From contig JAHPZJ010000027.1 of the NCBI GenBank assembly GCA_019058245.1, positions 10,344 to 74,343 of the forward strand: a stretch of 64,000 bases of DNA, written 5' to 3'. Under the pieces are notes generated by a model. The model searched no databases and was not told the origin of the DNA. It saw only the letters and a list, made by a program, of their open reading frames with translations. Positions within the stretch are counted from its first letter, which is position 1. Every line of letters begins with the position of its first letter. Shown here piece after piece: positions 1,859 through 62,862 of this stretch. A program made the translations under genes and the position numbers. This DNA comes from Promethearchaeota archaeon. Lineage in GTDB: Archaea; Asgardarchaeota; Lokiarchaeia; Sigyniarchaeales; SOKP01.

Positions 1859-1943
1859 AATGATCTTTCTCCCTTTATAACTTTAAAATGTTTATCTAAT
1901 GGCTTAAAAATTATAATAGTAAAAATATCAAGCTAATAAATTT

Positions 1944-2594
1944 TTAAATTTTTTTATGAATAACATAAATTGATATAATCAAATACCATAAAATTAGCGA
2001 TAAAGTATTCAACCATTCCAAACTGGGTAATATAATCATTAAAAATCTCAATACTGGAAATAAATGTAATATAAAGAAAACTAACATTATACTCAAGGTA
2101 AAGGTTGTAAATAGACCACAATATCCTAAGTATTTTGAATAATTTGATGAATCAATTATTAAAGAATTATAAAGACTAATATATAATAAACCAGATATCC
2201 AAGTGGTTACAGCACTAATTCCATGAATGTATGCAATTATGAGATTAGAACCACAAAAAACACCTAATATCATAAAACTTGTACAGGAAATTATTCCTGA
2301 AATTTTAGCACACATTCTAACATTATCATTGACTTCTTCTTCATTAAATGTTTTTTCAAGATAAATCAAAAATATAAATGCAAAAAAACCCGAAATTACT
2401 GTACCTGATTGAAAAAACAGCCAACCTGGTCCTAAACATAATGAACTTACGGCTCTCCGTAGTGGATTATATTCAGGATACATTAAATATGCAACTAAAT
2501 CACCTATCCCTCCAAAAATAATAGATAATAATCCATATACTCCAAATGATATTTTCTGTAAAGATTTATTGATATTTATTCTGAACTTTACCAT
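1944..2594 (-). CDS. polytopic membrane protein (DUF998-like), tandem paralogue of 1172..1858
   Basis: 216-aa hydrophobic ORF with the same architecture and C-terminal LILWYL..IHKKI motif as its neighbour. Confidence 0.55.
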   Translation of the reverse strand: MVKFRININKSLQKISFGVYGLLSIIFGGIGDLVAYLMYPEYNPLRRAVSSLCLGPGWLFFQSGTVISGFFAFIFLIYLEKTFNEEEVNDNVRMCAKISGIISCTSFMILGVFCGSNLIIAYIHGISAVTTWISGLLYISLYNSLIIDSSNYSKYLGYCGLFTTFTLSIMLVFFILHLFPVLRFLMIILPSLEWLNTLSLILWYLIISIYVIHKKI

Positions 2595-2751
2595 TTCAAA
2601 ATGCTCCTATATTTACTTAAAAGATAATTCTATAGGTTAATTATAAATATCTTTTTGTTATTTGGAAATTAATTTAAGACTTTAAAAAGTAAAACTACTT
2701 ATAAATCCATTTATATTTCAAATTAGAGCTGTTCAGAATATTGAAAACAAG

Positions 2752-3885
2752 TTATTTAGGTAAACAGACTATAAAAGTTGATCCTTTGTTTATACCTTGA
2801 GATTTTACAATTATTTTACCCTTATGCAATTGAACTATTTCTTTCGAAATATATAAACCCAAACCTGCACCTTCAGTATTAGTTTCCAAATTATTATCAA
2901 ATCTATTGATTTTACTAAACTTCTTAAACAATTGTCCTTTCTCTTTGTTTGTTAATCCAATACCAGTATCCTTGACTGAGATTTCTATGTTTTCTTTTTT
3001 AACATTTAAGTTAATAAAAATTGTACCATTAGAGGGCGTAAATTTTAATGCATTAGATATCAGATTAATTATAACTTGCTCTAATCTAATTCGATCAATG
3101 CTCAAAATACACTTTTGAGGTACATCTACTTTGATATTAATTTTTCTTTTATGTGCTCTAAGTTTTAAATCATTAACGCAATCTTGTATTAATTCAACAA
3201 GATCTTCATCTTTCAAGTCTAATTGCAATTCATCTGATTCTAATTTAGATATATCAAGCAGATTATCAATCAAAAGGCTTAATTTTTGGCTTCCCCTATA
3301 TATTATTTCAAGGTAATTTAATTCATTCTCTCTAAATTGTTCTTTGAAATTTTTTAAGAGAAATTGGGATGCCGCATAAACAGAGTTCAATGGAGTTTTG
3401 AGTTCATGAGATGCTTTCATTATCAATTCGCTTTTTATTTGACTTAATTCTTCTAATTTTTTATATTCTTCAAGATGAATACTTTCAGACTTCTTACGTT
3501 CAGATATATCTCGGGAGATTATAACTGCTTTAGTAATTCCACCTGTATCAATAAATTTCTTCCCTTTATGTTCAAACCAGATATAATGTCCATCTTTATG
3601 CATCAGTCTCATTTCATTTCTACTTTCCCCATATTTAAAAATATTTCTTATTGTTTTAGTGGCTATTTTCAAATCATCAGGATGTATGTTAAGAAGTGGG
3701 TTCTTTCCAATTAACTCTTCTCTTAAATAGCCCAAACTATCAAAAACTGCTTTCTCATTAATATATTCATGCTCTAATTTATCATTTAAAATTGTAATTA
3801 AGTCATTAGCATTATCTAAAATCATTTTATATTTTTTCTCTGAATTACTTAATAGTTCTTCATTTGTCATAAATCCATTAAACAC
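2752..3885 (-). CDS. PAS-domain sensor histidine kinase
   Basis: N-terminal PAS-like segment, H-box SHELKTPLNS, N-box LISNALKFT, and G-boxes DTGIGL and GAGLGLYISKEIV. Confidence 0.85.
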   Translation of the reverse strand: MFNGFMTNEELLSNSEKKYKMILDNANDLITILNDKLEHEYINEKAVFDSLGYLREELIGKNPLLNIHPDDLKIATKTIRNIFKYGESRNEMRLMHKDGHYIWFEHKGKKFIDTGGITKAVIISRDISERKKSESIHLEEYKKLEELSQIKSELIMKASHELKTPLNSVYAASQFLLKNFKEQFRENELNYLEIIYRGSQKLSLLIDNLLDISKLESDELQLDLKDEDLVELIQDCVNDLKLRAHKRKINIKVDVPQKCILSIDRIRLEQVIINLISNALKFTPSNGTIFINLNVKKENIEISVKDTGIGLTNKEKGQLFKKFSKINRFDNNLETNTEGAGLGLYISKEIVQLHKGKIIVKSQGINKGSTFIVCLPK

Positions 3886-5040: not shown

Positions 5041-5685
5041 TTACTGGATTTTTTTTATCTTTTTTAGAAGATCACGCATATGAAGGTTCCCCATCCCAAA
5101 TTTAACTTGAAAAGCAAACATTAAAACTAAATTAAATTTTTTTCCATCAAAAGCAATAATATTTGAGATGAATTTTTCGTTATTTTCTAATTCGAGATAC
5201 ATTTTTTTAACACGAATAAGGTTTTTCTCATTTCGAACTTCAAATTCTCTAATTGTATTGAATAATGTTGTTTGAGGCAAAGATGAATATAATACTTTTC
5301 CCTCTATTGTAAAAAATCCTGAACCAATAATTTCTTTATCATCGACACATTCTCGTAATAATTTGATAATATTTTGGAAAATCGGTGAGGAAGTAAAATC
5401 TTCTGTATCATACGTATCATCGCTACTTTCATAGAACTCCATTTTAGAAAACTCAAAATCAACAGTTTGATATCCTCTTACTTTAAAATTTTTGTCTACA
5501 AAAGCCTGAAAACTATGTTCACAACATAAATTTGAAGGAATTGATATTGTAGTTAATTGTTTACTTTGATCAATAACTTTCTTAGGAATCCTCAAATGTT
5601 TATTAGTCGAACATTGTGGACATCTAATCATAATTTCCTGTAAATCAATTTTGTTATTTTGTTTTATATCCTCTTGAGCACTCAT
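5041..5685 (-). CDS. hypothetical protein with N-terminal CxxC...CC zinc-ribbon-like motif
   Basis: 214-aa ORF with RCPQCSTNKH...LCCEHSF at the N-terminus. The C-terminal half (IIGSGFFTIEGKVLYSSLP...) loosely resembles a roadblock-type fold; this is inference. Confidence 0.5.
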   Translation of the reverse strand: MSAQEDIKQNNKIDLQEIMIRCPQCSTNKHLRIPKKVIDQSKQLTTISIPSNLCCEHSFQAFVDKNFKVRGYQTVDFEFSKMEFYESSDDTYDTEDFTSSPIFQNIIKLLRECVDDKEIIGSGFFTIEGKVLYSSLPQTTLFNTIREFEVRNEKNLIRVKKMYLELENNEKFISNIIAFDGKKFNLVLMFAFQVKFGMGNLHMRDLLKKIKKIQ

Positions 5686-6171: not shown

Positions 6172-6990
6172 ATGATCGCTATGAACACCACTCGAAATCC
6201 AGATCAATCTAATAAAAAATTGCATATGCTCGGTTATGGGTTATTAAATATTTCAGATCTCAAGTCTGGTGGAAAACTTAATGTGACTTTTCAATATGGT
6301 ATAGGGGTATCGCTAATTCAAAATATTTTCGAATTATATAAAAATGAAATTGTCAGCAAAAAACAGGGAAATTCTATTGTTCCTTTAGAAGAATTTACAA
6401 TTTATATTCAGTATTTTAAAAATGGAGAAGAAAACATATCTGTAATAATATATATGGAAGAAAAGGAACCAAACGTACCTGTAAATTATCCAAAATTATA
6501 CTTTTTGTCGAAAAAAATCAATAAACAAATTCTTTCTGGGACACCCATACCAAAACTAAGAGATATTTTTAAATCTGAGATTGAGATTCCAAAATCTGAT
6601 GGGGTTATAGCAATATTCATTATTGGATCCACTGGAAGTCCATTTGTTTCAAAGATTAATAAAAGTCGTTCAAGTATAGCTGAGCATGAAGTTCACATAG
6701 GTGGATTTATTTCAGCTTTATTATCATTTTCAAATACAATTATCGGTGAGGAAACTGGCGCCAAGCTTAAAGAGATTAATTTTGGAAACCAACAATTTTA
6801 CGTCATATCAAAGAGTAATGTTATTTTTGCCTTTTTAGTTGAAAATATGAATTCATTACTTCAAAGATATATGTATCTTCTCACGGATGAATTTCTTTTC
6901 GATTTCCGCGACTATATAAAGGATTTTAATGGGGATGTTACTCCATTTAATGAATTCGAAAAGAAAATAAATCAATATTTTATAATTTAA
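6172..6990 (+). CDS. hypothetical protein; C-terminal domain paralogous to 62473..62862
   Basis: 272-aa ORF ending 18 nt before cheW. The C-terminal segment HIGGFISALLSFSNTI...LKEINFGNQQFYV...FNEFEKKI aligns by eye with LFGGLMSALNTIAETL...FQLSNMRFAI...FDDFEKEI of 62473..62862. Confidence 0.55.
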   Translation: MIAMNTTRNPDQSNKKLHMLGYGLLNISDLKSGGKLNVTFQYGIGVSLIQNIFELYKNEIVSKKQGNSIVPLEEFTIYIQYFKNGEENISVIIYMEEKEPNVPVNYPKLYFLSKKINKQILSGTPIPKLRDIFKSEIEIPKSDGVIAIFIIGSTGSPFVSKINKSRSSIAEHEVHIGGFISALLSFSNTIIGEETGAKLKEINFGNQQFYVISKSNVIFAFLVENMNSLLQRYMYLLTDEFLFDFRDYIKDFNGDVTPFNEFEKKINQYFII

Positions 6991-7008
6991 AAAAAGGTTA
7001 TCAAAAAA

Positions 7009-7542
7009 ATGAGTCAAAAACAAGAATATGAAGGAATAAATCAAGTGTCTATCCTCTCCTTCCAGATTGGATGGGAAGAGTTCTGCATTGATTTGAATGA
7101 TGTTAAGGAAATAATTCAAGCAGGGTTAGTAAGAAAATTGCCTAAAAGCTTAGATTACATAGATGGAATCTATAATTATAGAGGAGAAATTATTCATGTA
7201 ATTAACTTAAAGAAAAAACTAGAATTGGATCAATCTCTATTATATCAATCTCGAAATTCCTCATATAAACAAGATTTGAAATCTACGAAGAAATTCATCA
7301 TCATCCTAAAGATTGATAACAATTTAATTGGGGTTTATACAGATTCTATCCTTAGTATCGATCATATAAACCCTTCTGAGATAATAGGATTAAGTCCAAT
7401 CTTTCAGACCAGTGTTGCTATTGATTATATTAAAGGAATTATTAAATTCGAAGAAAGACCAAGAATTCTGCTTGATTTAAGTAAAATTTTCAATGATATT
7501 GATAAATTTAGAATTAAGCAAGATTTATCATCTTTAACATAA
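7009..7542 (+). CDS. cheW: chemotaxis coupling protein CheW
   Basis: 177-aa single CheW-like domain (SFQIGWEEFCIDLNDVKEI..., GIYNYRGEIIHVINLKK). Confidence 0.9.
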   Translation: MSQKQEYEGINQVSILSFQIGWEEFCIDLNDVKEIIQAGLVRKLPKSLDYIDGIYNYRGEIIHVINLKKKLELDQSLLYQSRNSSYKQDLKSTKKFIIILKIDNNLIGVYTDSILSIDHINPSEIIGLSPIFQTSVAIDYIKGIIKFEERPRILLDLSKIFNDIDKFRIKQDLSSLT

Positions 7543-7569
7543 AATCAAATAAAAATAGGAGTTGATAAT

Positions 7570-7956
7570 ATGGTAAAAAATGAAAAAAAGAAGGTTCTAA
7601 TAGTAGATGATGCTCAGTTTACGCGTAACATGCTTAAAAACATAATTAATAAAATTGAACAAATTGAAGTTGTAGGTGAAGCTTCAAATGGAGTAGAAGC
7701 AATCTCCTTATATAAAAAATTAAATCCAGACTTAGTTACTATGGATTTAGTAATGCCAGAAAAGGGTGGTATTGAAGCAACAGAGGAGATTCTGAAAATA
7801 AACCCAAAAGCAATAATTATTGTGGTTTCTGCACTAGGTCAAGAAGCTTTAGTTCTTGAAGCAGCAAAAAAAGGGGCAAAAGATTTCATTCAGAAGCCCT
7901 TCAAGAATGAGCAAATCTTAGAGGTAATGAACCGAATACTAAAATCTGGCGAGTAA
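7570..7956 (+). CDS. cheY: chemotaxis response regulator CheY
   Basis: 128-aa receiver domain with VLIVDD, DLVTMDLVMP and KPF; AGGAG lies upstream. Confidence 0.9.
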   Translation: MVKNEKKKVLIVDDAQFTRNMLKNIINKIEQIEVVGEASNGVEAISLYKKLNPDLVTMDLVMPEKGGIEATEEILKINPKAIIIVVSALGQEALVLEAAKKGAKDFIQKPFKNEQILEVMNRILKSGE

Positions 7957-8041
7957 ACTCACCAAGAAGAGTATTATGAATGCAATCATCAAATAAATAT
8001 AAAAAAAAGGAATTAAAATAATAAGGATATAAGGTGATTAT

Positions 8042-10117
8042 GTGTCATCTAAAGACGATATAAAACTTTTTATAAGTGAAGCTGAGGATTTGATTCAGAA
8101 GACGGAGGATGAAATTCTAACTCTGGAAGAAAATCCTAATAATTCTAAACCGATTAAAGAACTCTTCTTCACATTTCATACATTAAAGGGATTAACCGCA
8201 ATGGTTGGCTTTGACAATTTATCTAAGTTCTGCCATCATTTTGAATCATTTTTAGATAATGCTCAGAAGAATAAAGTTTCTAAAACGAAAAGAGATAATT
8301 TCATAGACATGCTATTTGAGAGTCTTGATGTGTTAAAAAATGTCTTAAATCAGGTAAAAAAAGGAGATATGAAAGATATTGATGCAAATTTTGTTGAAGA
8401 TATAAAAAATAGCTTTGAAAGTTTTGAAACTGAAGAATATGATATCACCTTTATTGAAGCTTTAAATTTAGAAGAAATTTCTAAATTACTTAATCAGAAT
8501 CAAAATAAATCATTCAAGATTTATATTCGTCTTGAAGACACCTGTGTTTTTAAAAAAGTAAGATTATTCATTATCTTTAGAGCATTAAATGAAAATGGTA
8601 AAATATGTTGGACTAATCCTGTTCCTGAGGAGTTAGAAAGAGCAACAATCAGAAATGATTTTGAAATATACTTTATCACTAAAAATAATAAAGAGAATAT
8701 TTTCCAGATTTTAGATGAGATCTTAGAAATAGAAAACATTGTTATTACACCAATAAAATCTGAAGAATTCAAGAATACAATTGCCGATCTCAAGGGAAAA
8801 TGGGAACTTCAAAAATCAGCTTCAATAAGTGATGATATAATTATTGAAGATTATGATGAAGAAGTTGATGTTGAAGAAATTGAGAGAGTTTCTCATATTA
8901 CAGAGGGTTATACAGATGGTACTGTTAAAATTATGAGTGTTAAAGTTAATATTGAATATCTAGAGGAACTAATGAATTATTTCGGAGAGTTGGTAATAAT
9001 GAAAAATCATATTAGTCAACTTTTAAAAGAAAAAGAAGATAGAACACTAGCAAGATTAATCGATAAAATGGATAAACCCTTTTTAGATATTCAAGAAATT
9101 CTTTTTAAATTAAAATTAGTTAGAGTTGAATCAACTTTCAGAAAATATAAACGCTTAGTTCGTGATGTGGCAAATGAAACAGGGAAAAAAATAAGACTAA
9201 TTTTAGAAGGAACTAATGTTGAAATCGATAGAAAAATTTTAGAAGAAATTAATTCTCCTCTAGTTCATTTACTTAGAAATGCAATTTATCATGGTATTGA
9301 ACCACCAAAAGAACGAATTAAAAAAGGTAAAGATGAATTTGGAATCTTAAAACTAAGAACATATAGAAGAGCAGGATCAATTTTTATAGAGGTCCAAGAT
9401 GATGGTGCTGGTATTAATTATGATAAAATAAGAGAACAGGTTGTGAATAAAGGATATTATGATATAGATGAGGCCAAAGAATTAACCAAAGAAGATTTAA
9501 ATCACTTTATTCTTTTACCTGGGTTTTCTACACTCTCGGATGCAGACCTTATTTCAGGGAGAGGTATGGGGTTGGCTATTGTAGCCGAGAGAATTAAGGA
9601 ATTGGGTGGTGATTTTAGCATCCATTCAGAAAAAGATATAGGTACGAAATTTACATTAGACGTACCCTTTACGAGGGCAATATTAAGAGCTCAATTAATC
9701 CAAATAGCTGATGATTTATTTGCAATTCCAACTGAAAATATAAAACAAATATATTTTTACAATCCTAACCAAGTTGAATACATTGAGGGAGAACAATATT
9801 ATAAAATAGATTCAAAAATAGTACCTTTAATTCATTTAAGTGACCATTTAAATATGGTAAATGAAAGTGAGACGAATTCTCATAAAAAAATCGCTATATG
9901 GTGCCAAAAAGATGAAGAAAATTCAGCAGTATTTGTTGCTGATAAACAACTTCAACAGTTGGATGTAGTTGTTAAACCTTTTAAATCTAATTTTTCTGAC
10001 TCTCGTGATATATTAGGTTCTACAATTACAGGTGAAGGAATTATTTGCCTAATAATTGATGTGTTGAGCATTATTACCTCTAAAACAAATGAAAAAATAA
10101 TTTCTAATTTAACATAA
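8042..10117 (+). CDS. cheA: chemotaxis histidine kinase CheA
   Basis: HPt (FHTLKG), N-box HLLRNAIYHGIE, G-boxes DDGAGI and GRGMGL, and a C-terminal CheW-like domain. GTG start follows AGGTGAT. Confidence 0.95.
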   Translation: MSSKDDIKLFISEAEDLIQKTEDEILTLEENPNNSKPIKELFFTFHTLKGLTAMVGFDNLSKFCHHFESFLDNAQKNKVSKTKRDNFIDMLFESLDVLKNVLNQVKKGDMKDIDANFVEDIKNSFESFETEEYDITFIEALNLEEISKLLNQNQNKSFKIYIRLEDTCVFKKVRLFIIFRALNENGKICWTNPVPEELERATIRNDFEIYFITKNNKENIFQILDEILEIENIVITPIKSEEFKNTIADLKGKWELQKSASISDDIIIEDYDEEVDVEEIERVSHITEGYTDGTVKIMSVKVNIEYLEELMNYFGELVIMKNHISQLLKEKEDRTLARLIDKMDKPFLDIQEILFKLKLVRVESTFRKYKRLVRDVANETGKKIRLILEGTNVEIDRKILEEINSPLVHLLRNAIYHGIEPPKERIKKGKDEFGILKLRTYRRAGSIFIEVQDDGAGINYDKIREQVVNKGYYDIDEAKELTKEDLNHFILLPGFSTLSDADLISGRGMGLAIVAERIKELGGDFSIHSEKDIGTKFTLDVPFTRAILRAQLIQIADDLFAIPTENIKQIYFYNPNQVEYIEGEQYYKIDSKIVPLIHLSDHLNMVNESETNSHKKIAIWCQKDEENSAVFVADKQLQQLDVVVKPFKSNFSDSRDILGSTITGEGIICLIIDVLSIITSKTNEKIISNLT

Positions 10118-10171
10118 TTTTTTAAGAAGAATTAAAGTATCAAAAGAAGATAAACTTGGAGGAAACATAAT

Positions 10172-12199
10172 ATGGGTTTTAAAAAAATTGATATTGACGA
10201 ATTAAAAACAAAAGCAAGCCCAACTTTTCTTGGTATACCTATCAGGGAAGGAGGTAAACTTATCCAAAAAAGCTATAGAGAAAAAAAAATTGAATCAAGT
10301 TACATGGGAACAAGCTCAGAAGTATTGATATTAAATGAAGAATTTTTGGAATATGATTATCAAAACGATGGAACAAGAAAAGGAGTTATAGGTAATGGAA
10401 ATATTTCAATTTTCAATAATTCTATTAAAGATAGAATCTGGGATGCAAATTTACAATTTTCTGGCTCACAGTTTAATAACCAGAAAGCCGAAAATAATCT
10501 TAATTTAGGTGTCTTTGAACCTAATTCAAATAAAGTATTGAAATATGAAATTATAAATTCTGAGGATTTGCCGGATTTAATAAATGTAACTGAAAGTATT
10601 GATAACCTTAATGAAGATATTGGAATCTTTAGAAATAGTTATGAGGATTTAGAATTAAGTAATCATGAAATCTTGGAAAAAAGTCAGGATAAAAATTATT
10701 TATTGTTATGGGGAAAAGAGAATAAGGTAAAATTTACAATTAACATTGCTAACGTATCATCATATACACTTGTTAATATTAAGTTTAAAAAATTATTTGC
10801 AAATGTTTTTTACGATTTGGAATTTAAGTGCGAAAAAAGTAAGGAATTTAAAGTTATTAGAAATTCTATAGAAAGTTCATTAAATAATATTAATCCAGGT
10901 GAAAGTATTGATATAGTTATTTATGCAAAAGTATTTCCCAAAAAGAAAGAAAATATCAAAACAGGAAATATTGAATTAACATTTAACTTATCAAATAGAG
11001 TAATTTCCGGAGTAACAATCGATCATTTCTCAGCATATTCTCATGCGATGCATGCCATTAAAAAAACGGAAAAGATTCACGAACCTAATAACTGGAAATG
11101 TTCTCTTATATTCGAAAACTTAAGTGATTTTTCATTAAAATTGAAATCTATCCAAATATTTGATAAAAATAAAAAAAATAAAATTCTGGATTTAGATTCT
11201 AGAACACTAAGAAAACAAGTAGTCAATCCTCATGGTAAATATAAAACAGATTCTTTTTATTTTGTTGATGAAAAGGAGCCAATATTTTCAAGAAAAGTTG
11301 AATATTCTATTGGTTACAAGACTGAAAAGAATTCAATGATTACTTCCAGATATGAAGATAATTTCTTTGTCATTGCTCATTCAACAACAAAAAAGAAATT
11401 ATCAGACGAAGAGATTAAATCATTTGAAGAGGCTTCAGTACATTCCCAAATAACAATCAGTAATCAAGGGACGATACCAATCAGGGGTCTACAAATTATA
11501 GAAAAAATACCTGAAGATTTTTTACCTACAGGAAATATTTCAGATTATACATTAAGTAAATCCTCGGGTAAATTAATAATTGATGATCTTGAATTAAAAA
11601 TAAAGCCTGATGATGAAGATTCTTCTCATGAACACACCATAGAATTAAATATCAATTTAAAAACCAGTAGTTTAAATTCAGTAATTGATGTGGATAATTT
11701 CTTAGAGTTAAAGTATCCTCTTAAAGCAGTAAACCCAGATTATAAAAGAGATTATAATTTTCCACTTAGAGTTTATATCTTTTACTCAAAATATAAGGAT
11801 TCTGATCGAAAAGAGTATTACATGATATCGGAAGATCTTTCTGATATGGATAAATCTAAAATAAGAATTACTCATAAAAGAAGAAAAGTTACTATTGGAA
11901 AACAGATTTATCCAGGAAGGAGCGCTAATGAATTTGCTATTTATATTATCGCAAAAAATGGTTCAAATATGAAAATGAATGATATAAATATTACAGATTC
12001 TTTTCCAGATTCATTTGAAATGATCTCCTCAAATGCAGAATATAAGCTCACTAAATCAAAGAAAAATGCTGAACAAAAAATATCCTTTACAGTTGATACT
12101 CTTTTACCTTACCAAGAAAAAGAGATAATGTATTATTTAAAAAATATAACTGAAAAAGAGATAAAATCATCAGAATTAGAGTCATTTTTTGTTGGATAA
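10172..12199 (+). CDS. hypothetical 675-aa protein inside the che operon
   Basis: Long ORF with a GGAGG SD and no signal peptide or TM segment. Repeated segments (INIANVSSYTLVNIKF, ITISNQGTIPIRGLQII, YIIAKNGSNMKMNDINITDSFP) resemble CARDB/DUF11-type beta-sandwich strands; this is inference. Confidence 0.65.
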   Translation: MGFKKIDIDELKTKASPTFLGIPIREGGKLIQKSYREKKIESSYMGTSSEVLILNEEFLEYDYQNDGTRKGVIGNGNISIFNNSIKDRIWDANLQFSGSQFNNQKAENNLNLGVFEPNSNKVLKYEIINSEDLPDLINVTESIDNLNEDIGIFRNSYEDLELSNHEILEKSQDKNYLLLWGKENKVKFTINIANVSSYTLVNIKFKKLFANVFYDLEFKCEKSKEFKVIRNSIESSLNNINPGESIDIVIYAKVFPKKKENIKTGNIELTFNLSNRVISGVTIDHFSAYSHAMHAIKKTEKIHEPNNWKCSLIFENLSDFSLKLKSIQIFDKNKKNKILDLDSRTLRKQVVNPHGKYKTDSFYFVDEKEPIFSRKVEYSIGYKTEKNSMITSRYEDNFFVIAHSTTKKKLSDEEIKSFEEASVHSQITISNQGTIPIRGLQIIEKIPEDFLPTGNISDYTLSKSSGKLIIDDLELKIKPDDEDSSHEHTIELNINLKTSSLNSVIDVDNFLELKYPLKAVNPDYKRDYNFPLRVYIFYSKYKDSDRKEYYMISEDLSDMDKSKIRITHKRRKVTIGKQIYPGRSANEFAIYIIAKNGSNMKMNDINITDSFPDSFEMISSNAEYKLTKSKKNAEQKISFTVDTLLPYQEKEIMYYLKNITEKEIKSSELESFFVG

Positions 12200-12237
12200 T
12201 AAAAAAATAATTAAGATAAAAATTAGGAGGAAGAAAT

Positions 12238-13080
12238 ATGAAACTACAATATTATGAAATGATGGATGATAAATCTAAAAAATATTTATTATATCTCATC
12301 GAACAAGTCTTGCCCCAATTCACTGTAAGTGAACTTAAACTTTTTTTGGAAGATTTTTCTAATAACCTTAAAAATGGAAAAAAGTCTTCAAAATCAGCTA
12401 AAAATTATGTTGAAATAGGAAATGATGCAGGAAAATTAGCTGATTTATCAAACTTAACCATAGAAGAGTTAAAATTAATGTTCCAAATTTATATAAGCCG
12501 AGAAAAAAATGATAAATTTAGTATTAAGTGGCGGTTTTATCAATATCTTAAATACATGTTAGATTTAGACCTAAAATCAGTTAAAGTTAACCAAGATCTT
12601 AATCCAGACTCATTAATTGATTTGATTGTTGAAACCGTAGAAAAAGAAGTAATTCTTATATTATGTTATGATGTTTTAAGTATAGACATTTATAATAAAG
12701 CTATAATTAAGATAAATGAATTTGCAAAGGAAGAAAATTTAATTCCTGATAGAATTATTTTTGCTGTGGGTAAATCATTTCGTAATATACCAATTGATAT
12801 ACCTATAAAAATTATCAACAAGGAGCTTATACCTGAATTATGGATTGAATGGATTGAAGAGAACTGTCCCTTCAATAGAGAAGATTTAATTATTGTAAAT
12901 GATAGAGAACTAAAACTCGCGGGTTTTAACTTTACTAATATAGAGGATATGCTGAATTATATATTTAGATATTCCAATGGTGGGCAAATTACCATATATA
13001 GACAGGTCGATTTTTTTACAGAAGTTGATGAGGATGAACCCGAATTGGAATTAATTTGGAAAGGAATTATGTTAAAATAA
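12238..13080 (+). CDS. hypothetical 280-aa protein inside the che operon
   Basis: ORF with an AGGAGG SD and no recognisable motif. It is not CheR, because no SAM-binding motif is present. Confidence 0.6.
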   Translation: MKLQYYEMMDDKSKKYLLYLIEQVLPQFTVSELKLFLEDFSNNLKNGKKSSKSAKNYVEIGNDAGKLADLSNLTIEELKLMFQIYISREKNDKFSIKWRFYQYLKYMLDLDLKSVKVNQDLNPDSLIDLIVETVEKEVILILCYDVLSIDIYNKAIIKINEFAKEENLIPDRIIFAVGKSFRNIPIDIPIKIINKELIPELWIEWIEENCPFNREDLIIVNDRELKLAGFNFTNIEDMLNYIFRYSNGGQITIYRQVDFFTEVDEDEPELELIWKGIMLK

Positions 13081-13121
13081 AAATTAAACAGAAAAAATAG
13101 GAGAAAAAAGAGGTCAACAAT

Positions 13122-15113
13122 ATGTTAGAAACTGAATTTCAAAATAACGAATTTAAAGATACAATAAACGTAGTAATTATTCAAGTTCTTGATGAAAGAT
13201 ATCTTATAGAAGTTAAAAATATAAAGGAAATTTATGTTCCAGGGGATAATATCATTCCCGTTCCTTTAACAGATAAATCCATACTTGGTATTATTAATAT
13301 AAGAGGAGAAATTTATTCAATTATCTCATTAAGACATAATATATCTGATGATAATGATATTGATTATGGTTTATCTAACACATCACGGATTTTACTATTA
13401 GAATATGAAGACTTAAAAATAGCTTTATTAGTAGATTCCGTAATTGGCGTTAAAAATATTCCCCTTTCAATCTTCAAAAAACAAGGTACTATTGTAAAAA
13501 CAAGTATTGATTTCAGATTGATAAAATTAACTGGAATTTTTCAGGATGAAGCACTTATATTATTAGACCTACAAGCTTTAATTCAACCTTATTTGAAATC
13601 TCAGGTTAAGAAAGTAGAGAAAAAGATAGAACAAAAACCTAAAGTCCTTGAACGTGCTAAAATCCACCCTAAAGTGAAGCCAAAAACAACACCAGAACCT
13701 AGCAGCATTGAATCAGCTGTTATAATCCCTCAAAAAACACCATCTGAAATGCAGCTGACTAAGATTCCAGTAGAAAAAAAACGAAAACAAGTATCATTAT
13801 CGAATGAACAGCAAGATATTCTTAGAGAGATTGGTAATATAGGAACTGGAAACGCTGTTACAGCTTTATCACGACTAGTTAAAAAGAAAATAGATGTTAC
13901 TCTCACAGATGTAGGTATTATACCTTTAAATGAATTACCAAAACAATTTGGTGGTGCTAAAGAGAAAGTATGCGGGATTTTTTGTCATATAGATAAACCA
14001 TCTCAAGCAACTATTTTAAATATTTTTGAAATGCAACCACTAATGAAATTGATAGCACAATTAGCGGGGCCTCAATCTAAGATAGATCCTAAAAAGGTGA
14101 AATCTAAAAAAGATCTTGATGATTTTGCTATTTCCACTATTGTAGAGATGGGTAATATTATGGCAGGGCATTATGCCTCTGCATTAGCTGATTTATTAGA
14201 AACAAAAATGCTGATTGATATTCCGGAATTTACAATGAGTAAAGCTGGAGAAATTGGAGAATTTCTTTCTAAAGAATTAGAATCTATTGCGGAGTATTTT
14301 ATTATAATAAAAACTTCAGTAAACGTAGCGGATTTGAAACTGACAGGTATGTTCTTCTTTATCCCTGATCTTGAAACGTTAAAGACATTTTTCAATAAAT
14401 TAGGTATTGAACATGATATACCTGTCAAGATAATGACAACTAAAAGAGCAACTGAAATCCCAAGTATCGATAAGATAAAGCTTTCAGAAGTGCAAAGAGA
14501 TGCGTTACAAGAAGTCGGAAATATTGGTGCTGGAAATGCCGCTAACGCCTTAGCTCAAATGATTAACAAAAGAGTAGATATAAATATTCCATCAGTAGAG
14601 ATGGTTGAATTGGATGAGTATGCAAATACTATGAGTAATAAAAATGAGACCCTTTTGGTCGCTTGGAGTAATGTTACTGGTAAAACTCGAGCTACTGTCC
14701 TGACATTGTTTAATATAAAAGATGCTATTGATATAACCTCAATAATAGTAGATGATAGAGATAAAAAACAAATCGATCTTAGAAAAAAAATTAGTAAAGC
14801 GTCTGATTTTCCTGAGCTTTATCATAGTGCAATATCTGAACTAGGGCATATATTAGGTAGCCATTATGTAAGTGCAATTGGGGATTTATTAGGTATAAGA
14901 TTAATGACAGAACCTCCAGATATGAGCGTGGACACGGGACGTCAATTATTTAAAATTTTAAAAGAGGAAATTGGATTACTAAAAAAATTATCACTGGTTA
15001 TTACTACAAATGTGATTATCACAGACATTAAAGTTACTGGTACTTTCTTGTTCATTCCCAACTTAGAAACATTACAAGAATTATTGGAGGCACTTTTAAA
15101 GTTTTATTCTTAA
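13122..15113 (+). CDS. CheW-CheC-CheC fusion protein (CheY-P phosphatase-like)
   Basis: The N-terminal CheW-like domain (IIQVLDERYLIEVKNIKEI..GIINIRGEIYSIISL) is followed by a Lys/Pro-rich linker. Two CheC-type modules follow, carrying ExxN sites: REIGNIGTGNAVTALS, VEMGNIMAGHYASALA, QEVGNIGAGNAANALA, and a degenerate SELGHILGSHYVSAI. Confidence 0.8.
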   Translation: MLETEFQNNEFKDTINVVIIQVLDERYLIEVKNIKEIYVPGDNIIPVPLTDKSILGIINIRGEIYSIISLRHNISDDNDIDYGLSNTSRILLLEYEDLKIALLVDSVIGVKNIPLSIFKKQGTIVKTSIDFRLIKLTGIFQDEALILLDLQALIQPYLKSQVKKVEKKIEQKPKVLERAKIHPKVKPKTTPEPSSIESAVIIPQKTPSEMQLTKIPVEKKRKQVSLSNEQQDILREIGNIGTGNAVTALSRLVKKKIDVTLTDVGIIPLNELPKQFGGAKEKVCGIFCHIDKPSQATILNIFEMQPLMKLIAQLAGPQSKIDPKKVKSKKDLDDFAISTIVEMGNIMAGHYASALADLLETKMLIDIPEFTMSKAGEIGEFLSKELESIAEYFIIIKTSVNVADLKLTGMFFFIPDLETLKTFFNKLGIEHDIPVKIMTTKRATEIPSIDKIKLSEVQRDALQEVGNIGAGNAANALAQMINKRVDINIPSVEMVELDEYANTMSNKNETLLVAWSNVTGKTRATVLTLFNIKDAIDITSIIVDDRDKKQIDLRKKISKASDFPELYHSAISELGHILGSHYVSAIGDLLGIRLMTEPPDMSVDTGRQLFKILKEEIGLLKKLSLVITTNVIITDIKVTGTFLFIPNLETLQELLEALLKFYS

Positions 15114-15234
15114 ATTAATCATTAAGAATTATTTTTATCTCAATTTTATTCTAAAATTTCAAAATCGAATGAAGAAGATTTATATTTAAAATAAATCTAA
15201 ATAGAATATTAAAAATTATAGATAGGGATTAAAT

Positions 15235-15789
15235 ATGTTAAAAAGCGGTTATTACGACTTTATTTATGAAGTACAAGGTGAAACACTTAAACTAAGGCCC
15301 GAGAAGATGTTTGATCCCAATTGCGTGTATTTAATAGTAGATAAGGAGTTAAAACTTATTTGGATCTGGGCGGGTAGTCATTCTCGATTATTTCATCGAT
15401 ATATGGCAGCTAATTTTGCAGGAAAACTCAAGACAAAAAAGAAATTTTATAATTTTAAATATGAAGTCGTTAAAGAAGGTATTGAACCTCCTGAATTTCA
15501 TATAATATACAAAGAGATTAAAGAACAAAATTCTACTATAACCTATCCTGGGCAATCTAGATATATTGTTAAACAAACTCAAGCCCCAAGTAGTTATGGG
15601 GGAACTTCATCTTTAGATACAAGTTTAGAATCTAAAATAATTCTAGATGGTCGAGAATTATCAAAATCTGTCAAATCTCGTATTAAAAAAATTTTATCTG
15701 AGATAAAAGAAATTCAATCACATATAACTTATTCAATTAATCATATCCAACAACGTTTTGCCGAAATTGAAAAATTATTAGAAAATTAG
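15235..15789 (+). CDS. gelsolin-like domain protein with C-terminal coiled coil
   Basis: The N-terminal 95 aa follow the gelsolin-repeat pattern: CVYLIVDKELKLIWIWAGSHS...AANFAGKL...EVVKEGIEPPEF. Compare the remembered gelsolin G1 pattern AYVILKT..LHYWLGNECS...QHREVQGFESATF. Confidence 0.6.
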   Translation: MLKSGYYDFIYEVQGETLKLRPEKMFDPNCVYLIVDKELKLIWIWAGSHSRLFHRYMAANFAGKLKTKKKFYNFKYEVVKEGIEPPEFHIIYKEIKEQNSTITYPGQSRYIVKQTQAPSSYGGTSSLDTSLESKIILDGRELSKSVKSRIKKILSEIKEIQSHITYSINHIQQRFAEIEKLLEN

Positions 15790-16062
15790 AGTGTTTAGAA
15801 ACGATAAGAATTAAGGATATTAGATTTGATTCGAATTATTTAAAACTGCTAACGTACCTATTAATTAATAATATTGAATTTACTTCTGATTATAATAGAA
15901 GAAATATTGTCAAAAGAAGAATCAGTTATTGAATTATTGAAAGGAGGTAAAAGTCAAGAGAATTGTTAATTTTAGGAAAAATAGAGTAAAAAATTTAATC
16001 AGAATATAATTAAAAACTTAAAGTTTGTTATAATCATATGTAATTGAAAAAAGAGGGCTCAA

Positions 16063-17205
16063 ATGTCGATTAAGGTTCTTTTAGCGGAAGATTCAAGCTA
16101 TCAGAGAAAGCTAATAACTGATATGCTATTATCAAGCAAGGAGATTTCTAAAGTAGAAGTTGCTAAAAATGGAAAAGAAGCTATTAAAAAAATTGAGTCA
16201 GTAAATCCAGATGTTTTAATTTTAGATTTAATAATGCCTAAAATAGACGGAATAACGGTGTTCAAATTCCTTTCAGAACATTATCCAATACCTACAATAA
16301 TATTTACAGCTAAATCTCCAGAAACATTAGATGATTCTGTTCAAGCTTTACTTTTAGGAGCATTTGATTTTATTGTAAAACCAAAAGGACTATGGAAAGA
16401 AGAACTCCCCAAATTAAAAGAAAAATTAATTTTTAGTACGCTTTATGCGAGTAAAATAAAAAAGACCTATGAAAAACGAAATTTATTAATAAAGAAATCT
16501 TTCGAGAAACCTCTTAATTTGATAACTGAACAATATCAAATAATTAAAAAGCCTAAACCAAAGATTGAAAAAGCTCTGAAAATAACACCCTTACTTGAAG
16601 GTAAATTAACACCCAATGCAATAGTTATAGGAACTAGTACTGGTGGTCCTAGAACCTTAAAAACAATATTAAAAGATATTCCAAAAGATTTTTCATCACC
16701 AATTTTAATGGTTCAACATTTAGATGAATTCTTTATGAAAGAATTCTCAAAATCATTAAATCAGGTCAGTAAAATTGAAGTTAAAATTCCTGTTAATGGG
16801 GAAAAAATTCTTCCAGGAATTGCTTATCTTAGTCCAGGAGAAAAACATATGGAAGTTGCCCAAAGAAACAAGATACAATACATTAAAATACTTGATGGGG
16901 AGCCTGTTAATTTTTGTAAGCCTTCGGTGGATGTTTTATTCCTTTCAGCAGCAAAAGTATATAAGGATCGAATTTTGGGGATCTTACTAACAGGTTTAGG
17001 ACAAGATGGTGCAGCTGGTTTAGAAGCAATTAAAAAAGGAGGAGGCCAAACAATTGCAGAATCAGAACAAACATGTGTGGTATATGGTATGCCTAAAGCG
17101 GCGGTAAAGAGAGGAGCTGCAAATTTAATCTTACCTAATTACCAAATTAAAGAACATATGTTAAAATTTGCTAGAAAAAATAAGGGTAATCCAATATATT
17201 CATAA
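16063..17205 (+). CDS. cheB: chemotaxis methylesterase/deamidase CheB (REC + esterase)
   Basis: Receiver domain (VLLAEDS, DVLILDLIMP) plus an esterase domain with GTSTGGP, MVQHL and GQDGAAGL. Confidence 0.9.
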   Translation: MSIKVLLAEDSSYQRKLITDMLLSSKEISKVEVAKNGKEAIKKIESVNPDVLILDLIMPKIDGITVFKFLSEHYPIPTIIFTAKSPETLDDSVQALLLGAFDFIVKPKGLWKEELPKLKEKLIFSTLYASKIKKTYEKRNLLIKKSFEKPLNLITEQYQIIKKPKPKIEKALKITPLLEGKLTPNAIVIGTSTGGPRTLKTILKDIPKDFSSPILMVQHLDEFFMKEFSKSLNQVSKIEVKIPVNGEKILPGIAYLSPGEKHMEVAQRNKIQYIKILDGEPVNFCKPSVDVLFLSAAKVYKDRILGILLTGLGQDGAAGLEAIKKGGGQTIAESEQTCVVYGMPKAAVKRGAANLILPNYQIKEHMLKFARKNKGNPIYS

Positions 17206-17226
17206 GGTTATAACCAAAACTTTAAG

Positions 17227-17775
17227 GTGAAAAAGATAAAACCCCATGGATGTATTGAAAAACCAAACACTGATGGAAAAATTATCTTACCAATAGGGCA
17301 TTATGCTATTGTAAATTGTAGAAATAAACCAAATAATATTTATACAAAAATATCAATTTATGGATTAGGGTCTTGTATTGCTCTGATACTTTTTGATAGT
17401 AAAAATAAAGTAAGTGGAATGTCTCATATATTACTTCCAAAATGTCAACTAAACAAAAAAATTGAATATCCTCACAAATATGCTGATCTCTCAGCAAATC
17501 TGTTACTTCAAGAATTATTAAACCGTGGAGCAATTAAGAAAAATATAAAAGCTGTGATTGTTGGGGGTTCAAAGATTTTTGAATTAGATGAAAATGGTAT
17601 AGGGATTAATAATATCAAAGCAATTAAAAATGAATTAAAAAAATTAGAAATTAAGATTATAGGAGAAAATACAGGAGGATCTGAAGGAAGAGTTGTCATA
17701 TTTGACACTAAAGATTTCTCAGTCTATGTTAGATTAACAAGAGAATCAAATCTTCAAAAAATAAAGTATTCATGA
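17227..17775 (+). CDS. cheD: chemoreceptor glutamine deamidase CheD
   Basis: 182 aa with GLGSCIALILFD and SHILLP motifs; GTG start. Confidence 0.85.
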   Translation: MKKIKPHGCIEKPNTDGKIILPIGHYAIVNCRNKPNNIYTKISIYGLGSCIALILFDSKNKVSGMSHILLPKCQLNKKIEYPHKYADLSANLLLQELLNRGAIKKNIKAVIVGGSKIFELDENGIGINNIKAIKNELKKLEIKIIGENTGGSEGRVVIFDTKDFSVYVRLTRESNLQKIKYS

Positions 17776-17816
17776 TATAATAATTTTAAAAAGATTTAAA
17801 ATTGAGAGGATTAAAA

Positions 17817-18470
17817 ATGAAAAAGCCAATTGATATAAAATTAACACAAGAACAATTAGACATTTTAAAAGAATTAGGTAATATCGGTTCTGGGCATGCA
17901 ATAACAGCACTTTCCAAATTACTTAATATTAAAATCGATGTTTCATTGACATCCATAGATATTGTTCCTTTTTGGAAAGTTCCCGAACTATTTAATAAGT
18001 CTGCAATTGATATGGTTGGAATCTATTCTAAGATTCCCTTTAAATCAGATTTAGCAATTATCCAATTATTTACAAAAGTATCGATAGTAAGTCTAATCAA
18101 TATTTTATCTGATAATGACAAAATTATGGTTGATGATATAAAAACTATTGATGATTTGGATGATTTTTCAGTAAGTATTATAAGTGAAATTGGAAATATC
18201 TTATCTGGTCATTATACTAATGCTTTAGCTGATATGCTATCAATTAAACTGGTACCAAATGTTCCAAAAATCGCATTAGATTCTTTGAATGCTATTTTAG
18301 AAACCTTAATTGCTAAATTTTCTCAATTGTCAGATTATATGATTTTAATAAATACAAAATTAATAGTTTTAGATGTAAATATAGAAGGTATAATCTGTCT
18401 TATCCCTTCAATCAATATCTTAAAAAATCTATTTAATATTCTAAACTTAAAATACGATCTAAATCTCTAG
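17817..18470 (+). CDS. cheC: CheY-P phosphatase CheC
   Basis: Two ExxN sites (LKELGNIGSGHAITALS and ISEIGNILSGHYTNALA). The ORF track starts at TTG 17802; the ATG at 17817 follows GAGAGGA and is preferred. Confidence 0.85.
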   Translation: MKKPIDIKLTQEQLDILKELGNIGSGHAITALSKLLNIKIDVSLTSIDIVPFWKVPELFNKSAIDMVGIYSKIPFKSDLAIIQLFTKVSIVSLINILSDNDKIMVDDIKTIDDLDDFSVSIISEIGNILSGHYTNALADMLSIKLVPNVPKIALDSLNAILETLIAKFSQLSDYMILINTKLIVLDVNIEGIICLIPSINILKNLFNILNLKYDLNL

Positions 18471-18611
18471 GAAAGATATTTGATGATATGTACAAATAAA
18501 CAAGCTTAATTTATTTTCAGTGAAATTTTATTTTTGGGTTTTAGTAACATATATATTTTCTAACTTTACTATTTATTAGAATAATTAATTAAATATAATT
18601 AGGAGAGTTAT

Positions 18612-19970
18612 TTGACGATTGATGTGGTTATTGCTGATGACAGCGCATTTTTAAGAAAAAATATAGCAAATATTCTAAAAGAACATGATTCAATTGATAT
18701 TACTGGATTTGCGAAGGATGGAGAAGAAGCTGTTAAACTTGTTAAAGAAATTAGCCCAGATGTCTTAGTTTTAGATTTAGTAATGCCTAAAATGAATGGA
18801 TTGGATGCATTCAAACTAATAATGGAGGAAAATCCCACGCCTACTGTTGTCCTTTCAGCTATTAGTCCAAAAAAACTGGACTCTTCCATTCAAGCTCTTT
18901 TAATGGGTGCTTTTGATTATATCATAAAACCAGGGGGTATTGGAGCAAAACCATTGCCAAGATTTCGTGAAGAATTACTCGCTAAAGTATTGTTAGCGTC
19001 TCAATCACAAATTAAAAAAATATTCAGAAAAGGAGAAATTATATTAAAAAAAGGAAGATCTCTCCGCCAGGAGATGGTTAATCGAATTTTTGATTTTGGA
19101 CAATATCTTAACAGATTAGAACCTATTCAAGAAATTGAGGAAGAACAAAAATACGATTCTTTCGAAATTATGAAGGTTAAGGCAATCCTCAAGGATGAAA
19201 CTAAGGGTAAATTAGCAGAGTCAGCATCGAGTGAAGAAATTAATAAGGCAATAATAAGTACATCAGAAACAAGTGAAGAAAGGATAGAACAGATATCAAG
19301 AAAATCAGCATTACTAAAAAAATCAACAAATGCACAATTTAAAAAGAGTAAAACAGTAAATATTCCTGATCTCTCCCCTATTAAAGGAACTACAATAAGT
19401 TCAAATATAATTGTTATAGGTGCTAGCGTTGGAGGACCTAGAACAATAACAACAATATTAAAAGAAATTCCAAGAAATTTTAAGGCACCAATCTTAATCG
19501 TTCAGCATTTATCTTCTCATTTTACAGATGCTTTTGCAGATAATTTAGATATGGAATGTGAACTCAAAATAAAAGTAGCTAATAATGGAGATTATATTAA
19601 ACCTGGTTATGTTTATCTTGCCCCTGGAGATGTGCATATGGAAATCTCTGTTGAAAATAATACACCTCTAATCAAAGTTTATAAAGGAAGTCCTGTTAAC
19701 TTTTGCATGCCTTCTATAGATGTATTATTTTTTTCAGCAGCAAAAGTTTATAGAAATCATGCTATGGGAATAATTCTAACTGGAATGGGCTCAGATGGTG
19801 TAGAAGGTCTGGGAGCAATTAAAAGAGTGGGTGGAAAGACAATAGCAGAAGATAAAAGTACTTCTATACTTTATGCTATGCCAAAATTTGCCTCTGAGAA
19901 AGGATATGCTAAACTTGTATTACCAAATTATAATATAAAAGATGAAATGATAAAATTCATTGGAAATTAG
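18612..19970 (+). CDS. cheB: second CheB paralogue with a long inter-domain linker
   Basis: Receiver domain (VVIADDS, DVLVLDLVMP), a long charged Ser/Glu/Lys-rich linker, then an esterase domain with GASVGGP, IVQHL and GSDGVEGL. TTG start follows AGGAG. Confidence 0.85.
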   Translation: MTIDVVIADDSAFLRKNIANILKEHDSIDITGFAKDGEEAVKLVKEISPDVLVLDLVMPKMNGLDAFKLIMEENPTPTVVLSAISPKKLDSSIQALLMGAFDYIIKPGGIGAKPLPRFREELLAKVLLASQSQIKKIFRKGEIILKKGRSLRQEMVNRIFDFGQYLNRLEPIQEIEEEQKYDSFEIMKVKAILKDETKGKLAESASSEEINKAIISTSETSEERIEQISRKSALLKKSTNAQFKKSKTVNIPDLSPIKGTTISSNIIVIGASVGGPRTITTILKEIPRNFKAPILIVQHLSSHFTDAFADNLDMECELKIKVANNGDYIKPGYVYLAPGDVHMEISVENNTPLIKVYKGSPVNFCMPSIDVLFFSAAKVYRNHAMGIILTGMGSDGVEGLGAIKRVGGKTIAEDKSTSILYAMPKFASEKGYAKLVLPNYNIKDEMIKFIGN

Positions 19971-37686: not shown

Positions 37687-37696
37687 TCTCTATTAT

Positions 37697-39726: not shown

Positions 39727-39874
39727 TGAGCTATTTTCAAATATTTATTTTTATTTTAAATTGTTAAATTAAATTACTTTAATTATAAATTAAAATATTT
39801 AATATTTTATATTAAAAAGCTCTTTCAATATATCTTGGTTATAAAAATAGTTTTCATAATAAAGGAAAGTATCC

Positions 39875-62472: not shown

Positions 62473-62862
62473 TTGTGGATTATGTCTGAAGAAGGAATTG
62501 TCTTATTCAGTCGCGTTTTTGATCCCAAGGTTGATGATCAATTATTTGGGGGACTAATGAGTGCTTTGAATACTATTGCAGAGACACTTTCTGAGGGAGG
62601 GTTATCCAATTTTCAATTAAGCAATATGCGATTTGCGATAATGAAAATGAATAATATCTTATTCATCGCAAATGCCTCACTTTCGATTAAAGATAAAAAA
62701 CTTAGAGAAGAAATACAAAAGATTGCCGAAAAATTTTTCGTAAAATATCCAAAGAATATAATTATGGATTGGGACAATGATATAAGCATATTCGATGATT
62801 TTGAAAAGGAGATCGAAAATACCTTGAAAAATCCTATGAAAAAATTCTGGAATGGATTTTAA
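62473..62862 (+). CDS. small protein paralogous to the C-terminal domain of 6172..6990
   Basis: 129 aa with GIVLFSRVF...LFGGLMSALNTIAETL...FDDFEKEI. TTG start; the ATG at 62482 is an alternative. Confidence 0.5.
   Translation: MWIMSEEGIVLFSRVFDPKVDDQLFGGLMSALNTIAETLSEGGLSNFQLSNMRFAIMKMNNILFIANASLSIKDKKLREEIQKIAEKFFVKYPKNIIMDWDNDISIFDDFEKEIENTLKNPMKKFWNGF

Follow-up and report, generated by a model that had tools for sequence, protein, structure and literature searches.

A chemosensory operon of a Lokiarchaeia-type Asgard archaeon with conserved gelsolin-domain and predicted longin-type partners, and its possible connection to the actin cytoskeleton

What does a chemosensory pathway control when its genes are interleaved with genes that have no known role in chemotaxis? 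The question is raised by a 64,000-nt stretch of contig JAHPZJ010000027.1 from a Promethearchaeota archaeon (assembly GCA_019058245.1), referred to here as the window; all positions are those of the whole stretch, the G+C content of which is about 28%. At 6172-19970 its plus strand carries 12 co-directional open reading frames (ORFs) in the order LONG2, CheW, CheY, CheA, U675, U280, a CheW-CheC-CheC fusion (WCC), GEL, CheB1, CheD, CheC and CheB2. This region makes up the main chemosensory operon of an Asgard archaeon of the Lokiarchaeia type, in which a standard core of the known archaeal/Bacillus-type Che family is joined by a new set of conserved partners. An earlier note, made from the sequence of the window, had pointed to the atypical content of the cluster and had proposed that the pathway must feed a different output if the genome lacks an archaellum. 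From gene neighbourhood and fold, we consider it possible, if somewhat short of an even chance, that CheA/CheY signalling reaches a small GTPase and Lokiactin through the embedded genes.

The case for a genuine partnership begins with the conservation of the cluster. A scan with CheA over one genome per prokaryotic species returned 30 Asgard loci (designated by L numbers where they need to be told apart), nearly all labelled Promethearchaeota or Lokiarchaeia, with CheA identity ranging from 92% in the nearest species representative to 49%. Two independent comparisons of the loci, one mapping the twelve window proteins onto them and the other clustering all of their ORFs, led to the same consensus, [MCP]-LONG2-CheW-CheY-CheA-U675-U280-CheW/CheC/CheC-GEL-[CheR]-CheB-CheD-CheC-[Roadblock-GTPase]-[CheB2], where MCP stands for methyl-accepting chemotaxis protein. 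The eight-gene order from LONG2 to GEL is found in about 35 loci and is invariant, over this entire span of CheA identity, wherever the locus is long enough. The same neighbourhood was recovered on contigs found via GEL homologues (L035-L037) and via LONG2 homologues (L038-L041), so that the association between the che genes and the extra genes does not stem from the choice of CheA as anchor. The synteny comparison suggested in the earlier note for the four genes that it could not assign to chemotaxis thus favours them: wherever a related locus is long enough they lie among che genes, also in the loci anchored on GEL and LONG2. All 12 genes are under purifying selection, with ratios of non-synonymous to synonymous substitution rates (dN/dS) of 0.03-0.37 against three relatives, and the four extra genes (LONG2, U675, U280 and GEL; 0.08-0.23) fall in the same range as the che genes. 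Because every gene is constrained and the order is kept in about 35 loci, the arrangement is beyond chance; together with the Pfam assignments of the che families, this bears out the earlier description of a real Che cluster with atypical extra genes. The four extra products contain neither transmembrane segments nor signal peptides, which places them in the cytoplasm. We also observed that metagenome-assembled genomes labelled Odin-, Hod-, Hermod- or Thorarchaeota (L001, L013, L017, L025 and several protein matches) carry clusters 70-92% identical to Promethearchaeota/Lokiarchaeia loci of the same project. The sequence comparison suggests that these labels are unreliable, and we do not use them as evidence for other Asgard classes.

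What could the embedded proteins be? LONG2, the product of the first gene, has no Pfam match, and a profile of its orthologues found no match among PDB sequences. Its family comprises 142 clusters; among the top 120 listed, the named members are all Asgard entries called 'hypothetical protein' and none carries a Pfam domain. The gene has a dN/dS of 0.08-0.11. An AlphaFold2 (AF2) model built from 38 sequences (pLDDT 85, pTM 0.81) shows two tandem domains of beta-beta-alpha-beta-beta-beta-alpha-alpha topology, and its best Foldseek matches in the PDB are Fuzzy-Inturned, Mon1-Ccz1 (tri-longin Rab guanine nucleotide exchange factors, GEFs), bacterial Roadblock/LC7 proteins, the LAMTOR proteins of Ragulator and the longin domains of AP sigma/mu, with a probability of 0.97-1.0 against Fuzzy-Inturned, Mon1-Ccz1, Roadblock/LC7 and LAMTOR. 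LONG2 is predicted to consist of two tandem longin domains, in agreement with the roadblock/longin-like domain that had been read in this gene before. Longin and roadblock proteins such as Mon1-Ccz1, Fuzzy-Inturned, Ragulator and MglB act as GEFs, GTPase-activating proteins (GAPs) or platforms for small GTPases. A further occurrence of the family is seen in locus L040 at 1264-3614, where an MCP gene is followed by one for a paralogue of LONG2 (22% identity over 230 aa, E 1e-12) and then by one for a CheY paralogue (60% identity). The main cluster lies about 7 kb downstream of these genes, and the stretch in between encodes a PAS histidine kinase, a HisKA-REC protein and a dCache MCP. Through this small module the longin family is associated with CheY and MCP a second, independent time.

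The gelsolin-like character of the gene at 15235 was confirmed at the level of orthologue profiles. As a single sequence GEL gives a weak Pfam gelsolin match, below the cut-off (E 0.01), and a profile of 22 orthologues matches the solved Thor ProGel structure (7c2f_B, E 4e-7, residues 24-89), with further matches to villin (3e-5), Heimdall 2DGel (4e-5), Loki 2DGel (4e-3) and CapG. The protein is laid out as a gelsolin domain at residues ~10-95, a variable linker and a conserved, coiled-coil-like C-terminal amphipathic helix at ~140-184, and its gene evolves under clear constraint (dN/dS 0.12-0.14). These matches indicate a real gelsolin domain in an architecture that resembles the Asgard gelsolins consisting of one domain and an 'X' part (Thor 1DGelX; B35_GelX and B35_Gel of L. 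ossiferum), with which GEL shares a single gelsolin/cofilin-type domain and a predicted helical or coiled-coil extension. In vitro, Asgard gelsolin-domain proteins, those with a single domain plus X among them, bind and sever actin, and Thor 1DGelX both nucleates and severs it (PMC7444086). GEL, however, is only 184 aa long, whereas 1DGelX migrates near actin on gels and must be much larger (PMC7444086). It also forms a family of its own with 223 clusters, of which the 120 listed span 172-218 aa and carry no Pfam annotation. In every context examined this family belongs to a che operon, a context that is not mentioned in the literature found for the known gelsolins.

The third component that points towards the cytoskeleton is found in the relatives. 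A gene for a protein of about 318 aa, combining a Roadblock domain with a Ras-family (Rab-like) GTPase, lies inside the cluster in most relatives, with 16 CheA-anchored and 3 GEL-anchored loci carrying it. It directly follows GEL in L024, L026, L035, L036 and L037 (in L028 cheR intervenes) and stands directly upstream of the CheB2 orthologue in L005, L010, L018 and L030. The G1-G5 motifs of this GTPase are intact, and the catalytic Gln after DxxG is missing, which makes a GAP acting in trans plausible. Among solved structures it is closest to eukaryotic Rabs and to one Rab of Thorarchaeota (E ~1e-30). No mutual relatedness was found by hhalign between its Roadblock domain, LONG2 and u214, the product of the gene next to the cluster. 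The clusters of the window, L002 and L007 are without the GTPase gene. The window is thus a degenerate example of the cluster, with the GTPase gene absent and cheR present only as a stub.

The Che proteins themselves form a standard core. The intergenic gaps measure 18-141 bp, apart from a single one of 273 bp at 15790-16062, and a motif resembling the Shine-Dalgarno (SD) sequence precedes 9 of the 12 gene starts, so that the coordinates agree with the twelve closely spaced, co-directional genes with SD motifs described earlier. Equally sound was the reading of two methylesterases and a deamidase, as Pfam identifies REC-CheB proteins at 16063 and 18612 and CheD at 17227. CheA contains the HTLKG phospho-His motif, and the translation of CheY retains the DD13/14, D59 and K109-type residues. 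CheY is by far the most conserved gene product of the cluster: its identity is 72-98% over all loci and 89-98% where that of CheA is 72-92%, with a dN/dS of 0.03-0.04. Such strong conservation of the sequence is compatible with many interaction partners. The WCC fusion, kept in all loci, has three [DS]xxxExxN sites of canonical form and a fourth that is degenerate (N to H), and by its CheW domain it probably places a CheY-P phosphatase in the receptor array; the stand-alone CheC has two such sites. Both methylesterases keep their Ser, His and Asp motifs (the Ser within GTSTGG in CheB1 and GASVGG in CheB2), and in CheB2 a charged, apparently disordered linker of about 155 aa separates REC from the esterase domain. 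The features of the cluster and its immediate neighbour are collected in Table 1.

Table 1. Genes and gene remnants of the chemosensory cluster and its upstream neighbour in the window
Feature	Position	Strand	Basis
u214, 214 aa, divergent from operon	5041..5685	-	Conserved neighbour
LONG2, 272 aa, two tandem longin-type domains (predicted), first operon gene	6172..6990	+	AF2 model and Foldseek
CheW coupling protein	7009..7542	+	Pfam CheW, E 2e-24
CheY response regulator	7570..7956	+	Pfam Response_reg, E 5e-28
CheA histidine kinase	8042..10117	+	Five Pfam domains: Hpt, P2, dimerisation, HATPase_c, CheW
U675, 675 aa, Ig-like beta-sandwich (DUF11/DUF7507)	10172..12199	+	Pfam on orthologues
U280, 280 aa, Asgard-restricted family	12238..13080	+	Clusters and profile search
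WCC, one CheW domain fused to two CheC phosphatase modules	13122..15113	+	Pfam CheW (residues 17-155), CheC repeats (1e-37)
GEL, 184 aa, one gelsolin domain	15235..15789	+	Orthologue profile against PDB
cheR relic, first ~43 codons	15801..15932	+	tblastn, translation, DNA alignment
CheB1 methylesterase, REC + CheB_methylest	16063..17205	+	Pfam, E 3e-58
CheD deamidase / CheC partner	17227..17775	+	Pfam CheD, E 7e-22
CheC phosphatase, stand-alone	17802..18470	+	Pfam CheC, E 5e-21
CheB2, second methylesterase (REC + CheB methylesterase)	18612..19970	+	Pfam, E 1e-58

Is the system then truly devoid of a receptor and a methyltransferase? A Pfam scan that took in every window ORF of at least 120 aa gave no match to the MCPsignal, CheR, CheF-arch or archaellum families, and to this extent the earlier statement that the window holds no receptor, intact methyltransferase, CheF or archaellum gene is upheld. 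The gap of about 270 bp before CheB1, correct in its length, is not empty, however: it contains the beginning of a cheR gene. Residues 2-41 of the L003 CheR match the window in a tblastn search with 45% identity (E 2e-5), the start codon has become ACG, stop codons lie downstream, and the DNA aligns with the 5' ends of the intact cheR genes of L003 and L004. The alignments indicate that cheR was deleted from this cluster and left a stub behind. At least 12 related loci have an intact cheR gene between those for GEL and CheB, and a similar 5' stub of ~33-49 codons is found in L002 (~17735-17860), L005 (13619-13717), L007 (17757-17903) and L010 (8033-8176); the operon cheR has been lost in several lineages. 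The recurrence of the stub would reflect either one old deletion, inherited in a distribution at odds with CheA identity, or the retention of the stretch for a functional overlap such as a cheB promoter. MCP genes stand directly upstream of the cluster in the distant relatives L024, L026-L029 and L040, and the cultured Candidatus (Ca.) L. ossiferum encodes 15 MCPs together with cheA/B/C/D/R/W/Y (PMC9834061). As traits of the system, the missing CheR and MCP must accordingly be given up: because the relatives keep both, their absence is local to the cluster of this genome.

The two remaining extra proteins are harder to place. U675 is always encoded immediately downstream of cheA in the related loci; DUF11 was found in 23 of its 23 orthologues examined and DUF7507 in 13 of them, the versions of distant relatives reach 1040-1778 aa, and the orthologue profile gave no match against PDB sequences. 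A similarity of one orthologue to the mu-homology domain ('Adap_comp_sub') was rejected: it lies below the Pfam cut-off, overlaps DUF11 and reflects a generic beta-sandwich resemblance. U280 has no Pfam match, and its orthologue profile likewise found nothing among PDB sequences. None of the 168 clusters of its family is named or carries a Pfam domain, and a profile search of 1.84 billion representative proteins returned only 60 relatives, the distant ones again without a Pfam domain. The gene is constrained (dN/dS 0.15-0.17) and its AF2 model has a pLDDT of 78. A likeness of U280 to PD-(D/E)xK nucleases was also discarded, the best Foldseek match being insignificant (E 8e-3) and no conserved catalytic motif being apparent.

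How could these components be connected? In the pathway that we envisage, MCP arrays encoded elsewhere would control CheA, and CheY-P, or the CheA/CheW array by way of the WCC fusion, would act on LONG2. Like other longin/roadblock platforms, LONG2 would regulate a small GTPase, and the GTPase switch together with GEL would locally change the dynamics or turnover of Lokiactin filaments, so that chemical gradients would bias the growth of protrusions or actin-dependent crawling. Should the genome encode an archaellum, such an actin output could operate in parallel with it. Put in full, the proposal is that in Lokiarchaeia a bacterial-type MCP-CheA-CheY pathway steers actin-based protrusion or crawling via LONG2, the Roadblock-Rab-like GTPase and a Lokiactin-remodelling GEL, as a hybrid of prokaryotic sensing and eukaryote-type output that predates eukaryogenesis; we offer it tentatively and regard it as somewhat unlikely to be right as a complete account. 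A non-archaellar output gains support because the embedded genes encode a predicted longin protein, a gelsolin-domain protein and, in relatives, a Rab-like GTPase. What is reported of the cell biology of cultured Lokiarchaeia makes the pathway plausible: putative chemoreceptor arrays are reported for Ca. L. ossiferum, two of them seen by cryo-electron tomography (cryo-ET; PMC9834061), L. ossiferum and M. peptidophilum crawl via actin-dependent protrusions, and pull-down of Lokiactin by co-immunoprecipitation brought along five gelsolin-homology proteins as well as an Arf-family GTPase (bioRxiv 10.1101/2025.11.30.690169).

Several considerations weigh against steering of the cytoskeleton. The window contains neither a GTPase gene nor a relic of one, whether in the 141-bp gap before CheB2, in the cluster or in the whole 64 kb. 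The gelsolin match of GEL is of moderate strength (profile E 4e-7), its length falls far below that of Thor 1DGelX, and its actin binding is putative. The link between che genes and cytoskeleton is drawn from gene neighbourhood and fold, and it leaves U280 and U675 unexplained. Ca. L. ossiferum, the organism in which the imaging was done, is not established as a carrier of this exact cluster, and the study of crawling makes no mention of chemotaxis (bioRxiv 10.1101/2025.11.30.690169). Archaellins, FlaI and archaellum machinery are moreover reported for Ca. L. ossiferum, which belongs to the same class and has been cultured, and a conventional output would thus be available in at least one relative.

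This last point leads directly to the most conservative alternative, conventional archaellar chemotaxis, in which CheY-P would signal through CheF to an ArlCDE-type archaellum encoded elsewhere and the four or five extra genes would be accessory or scaffold components of the array, or passengers. The core is a complete standard archaeal Che set, relatives carry cheR and MCP genes in or beside the cluster, and archaellum genes are reported together with che genes in Ca. L. ossiferum, so that the premise that the genome lacks an archaellum may be false. Machineries for both chemotaxis and archaellum motility are also reported for N. marumarumayae. Yet no archaellum or cheF gene was found within about 10 kb of the cluster in about 40 loci, or in the 64-kb window, although che and arl genes are often adjacent in euryarchaea, as is generally known. 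Archaellum and related systems (TFF) are reported to be rare among Asgard genomes, and an archaellar output gives no reason for gelsolin, longin and Rab-like GTPase genes to be fixed in the operon at such divergence. We hold this explanation to be unlikely. 

Two further possibilities retain a role for the extra genes and change its nature. GEL, LONG2 and the GTPase could serve to tether the arrays to Lokiactin or to place them in protrusions, in the manner of the ParA-like systems (ParC, PpfA) of bacteria, with the output of the pathway lying elsewhere. The gene neighbourhood speaks for such positioning just as it does for steering, WCC, encoded beside GEL, would be a component of the array, the coiled-coil-like tail of GEL suits tethering, and cells with long protrusions plausibly need to place their arrays. 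We nevertheless find this decidedly unlikely: gelsolin domains have no precedent as static tethers, the characterised Asgard gelsolins sever, cap or bundle actin (PMC7444086), and only two putative arrays were seen by cryo-ET (PMC9834061). Alternatively, the pathway may be chemosensory in appearance and devoted to cell-cell contact, to trafficking or remodelling through the Rab-like GTPase, or to gene regulation, without any steering and with a gelsolin fold unrelated to actin. The Rab-like nature of the GTPase would agree with this, as would the longin domains, which are typical of trafficking regulators; the loss of the operon cheR in several lineages could mean a relaxed need for classical adaptation, and cell-cell communication was raised as a possible role by the authors of PMC9834061. 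Against it, both CheB proteins, CheD and CheC are intact and constrained, which argues for a working taxis-type methylation and adaptation system, and the gelsolin domain best matches actin-binding Asgard gelsolins, so that we think an unrelated function very unlikely.

To what extent does the proposed steering of the cytoskeleton resemble systems already described? A search of the full-text literature, the coverage of which is not exhaustive, found no report of an association between che genes and genes for gelsolin, longin or GTPase proteins in Asgard archaea. Archaeal chemotaxis as known from Halobacterium, Haloferax and Methanococcus, with its CheF to ArlCDE switch, has the same core and the same architectures, including the P2 domain of CheA, the CheC/CheD pair and REC-CheB. 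The cluster described here differs in having no CheF or archaellum gene nearby, either in the window or in the related loci, in its cheR stub and in the CheW-CheC-CheC fusion. Compared with euryarchaeal che clusters, it adds the predicted tandem longin protein, the DUF11-type protein, U280, the gelsolin-domain protein and, in relatives, the Roadblock-Rab-like GTPase, none of which is known there.

The closest system in terms of logic is that of Myxococcus xanthus, in which the Frz pathway acts on the Ras-like GTPase MglA and its Roadblock GAP MglB: there too a Che-type kinase pathway is associated, in the Asgard relatives by gene linkage, with a small GTPase and regulators of the roadblock/longin fold. 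The output of Frz and MglAB is surface motility and not a rotary filament, and frz and mglBA are separate loci in Myxococcus. The Asgard genes, by contrast, share one operon, their GTPase carries a Roadblock domain fused at its N-terminus and is of a Rab-like and not the MglA type, and a gelsolin-domain protein is included; no regulators of the FrzZ/FrzX or RomR type were identified in the Asgard cluster, and the window itself is without a GTPase. A looser analogue is the Streptomyces conservon, which combines a sensor kinase-like protein with a roadblock protein and a small GTPase. LONG2 shares its predicted fold, in tandem, with the longin GTPase regulators (Mon1-Ccz1, Fuzzy-Inturned/CPLANE, Ragulator/LAMTOR) and with bacterial Roadblock/LC7 proteins such as CvnB of that conservon, but it has no detectable sequence similarity to any of these proteins, has two domains and not three, and is encoded by the first gene of a che operon; any GEF or GAP activity is putative. 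The resemblance to eukaryotic chemotaxis, in which receptors act through Ras, Rap or Rac on actin regulators, would lie in the combination of a sensory pathway, a small GTPase and an actin regulator in an organism that crawls by means of actin. The Asgard sensor, however, is the prokaryotic MCP-CheA-CheY and not a G-protein-coupled receptor with its G protein, and the cluster contains no component of the Arp2/3, formin or WASP type.

The surroundings of the cluster contain a further conserved gene. The divergently transcribed u214 adjoins the cluster in 15 loci, among them the distant L024 (50% identity), and its product combines an N-terminal zinc-ribbon-like motif (CPxC...CxH) with a highly conserved C-terminal domain. 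To the eye this C-terminal domain may be roadblock-like. No match was found for u214 in Pfam, among PDB sequences with an orthologue profile or with hhalign; its conserved position makes it a candidate regulator or partner. In the flanks of L002-L019 and L029 the che cluster is accompanied by genes for a low-molecular-weight phosphotyrosine phosphatase, BacA and an ATP-grasp protein resembling Ins(1,3,4)P3 5/6-kinase, and in three loci also by myo-inositol-1-phosphate synthase. At 11632-13965 of L035 the phosphatase, BacA and ATP-grasp genes come directly after the GTPase gene, and the 5' edge of the window holds members of those same flank-gene clusters. Inositol and phosphoinositide metabolism is discussed in relation to profilin and actin regulation in the study of crawling (bioRxiv 10.1101/2025.11.30.690169).

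Elsewhere the window encodes typical Asgard eukaryotic signature proteins. One, of 790 aa (33052-35424, minus strand), has Pfam matches to PCI, E3_UFM1_ligase, DDRGK and the C-terminal part of VPS28, an unusual mix of eukaryotic signature domains of the UFMylation and ESCRT-I types; another is a stand-alone longin protein of 129 aa (62473-62862, plus strand) with a near-threshold match to the first longin domain of FUZ/MON1/HPS1 (E 1.4e-5). Two GT87-family glycosyltransferases encoded around a gene without assignment, beside an N6/N4 DNA methylase (36391-40969, minus strand), are unrelated to the che cluster.

What would the partnership mean for the biology of these archaea? Should the link to the cytoskeleton prove false, the chemosensory systems of archaea would still gain four or five new conserved components from this cluster. 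The genomic context and the predicted folds suggest more than this, namely that bacterial-style sensing is connected to a eukaryote-like cytoskeleton in the closest relatives of eukaryotes, and the cluster gives named candidates for the link between sensing and cytoskeleton that would direct the actin-based movement of Lokiarchaeia. If that link is true, signal transduction was tied to small GTPases and actin regulators before eukaryotes arose, with a two-component system as its first foundation.

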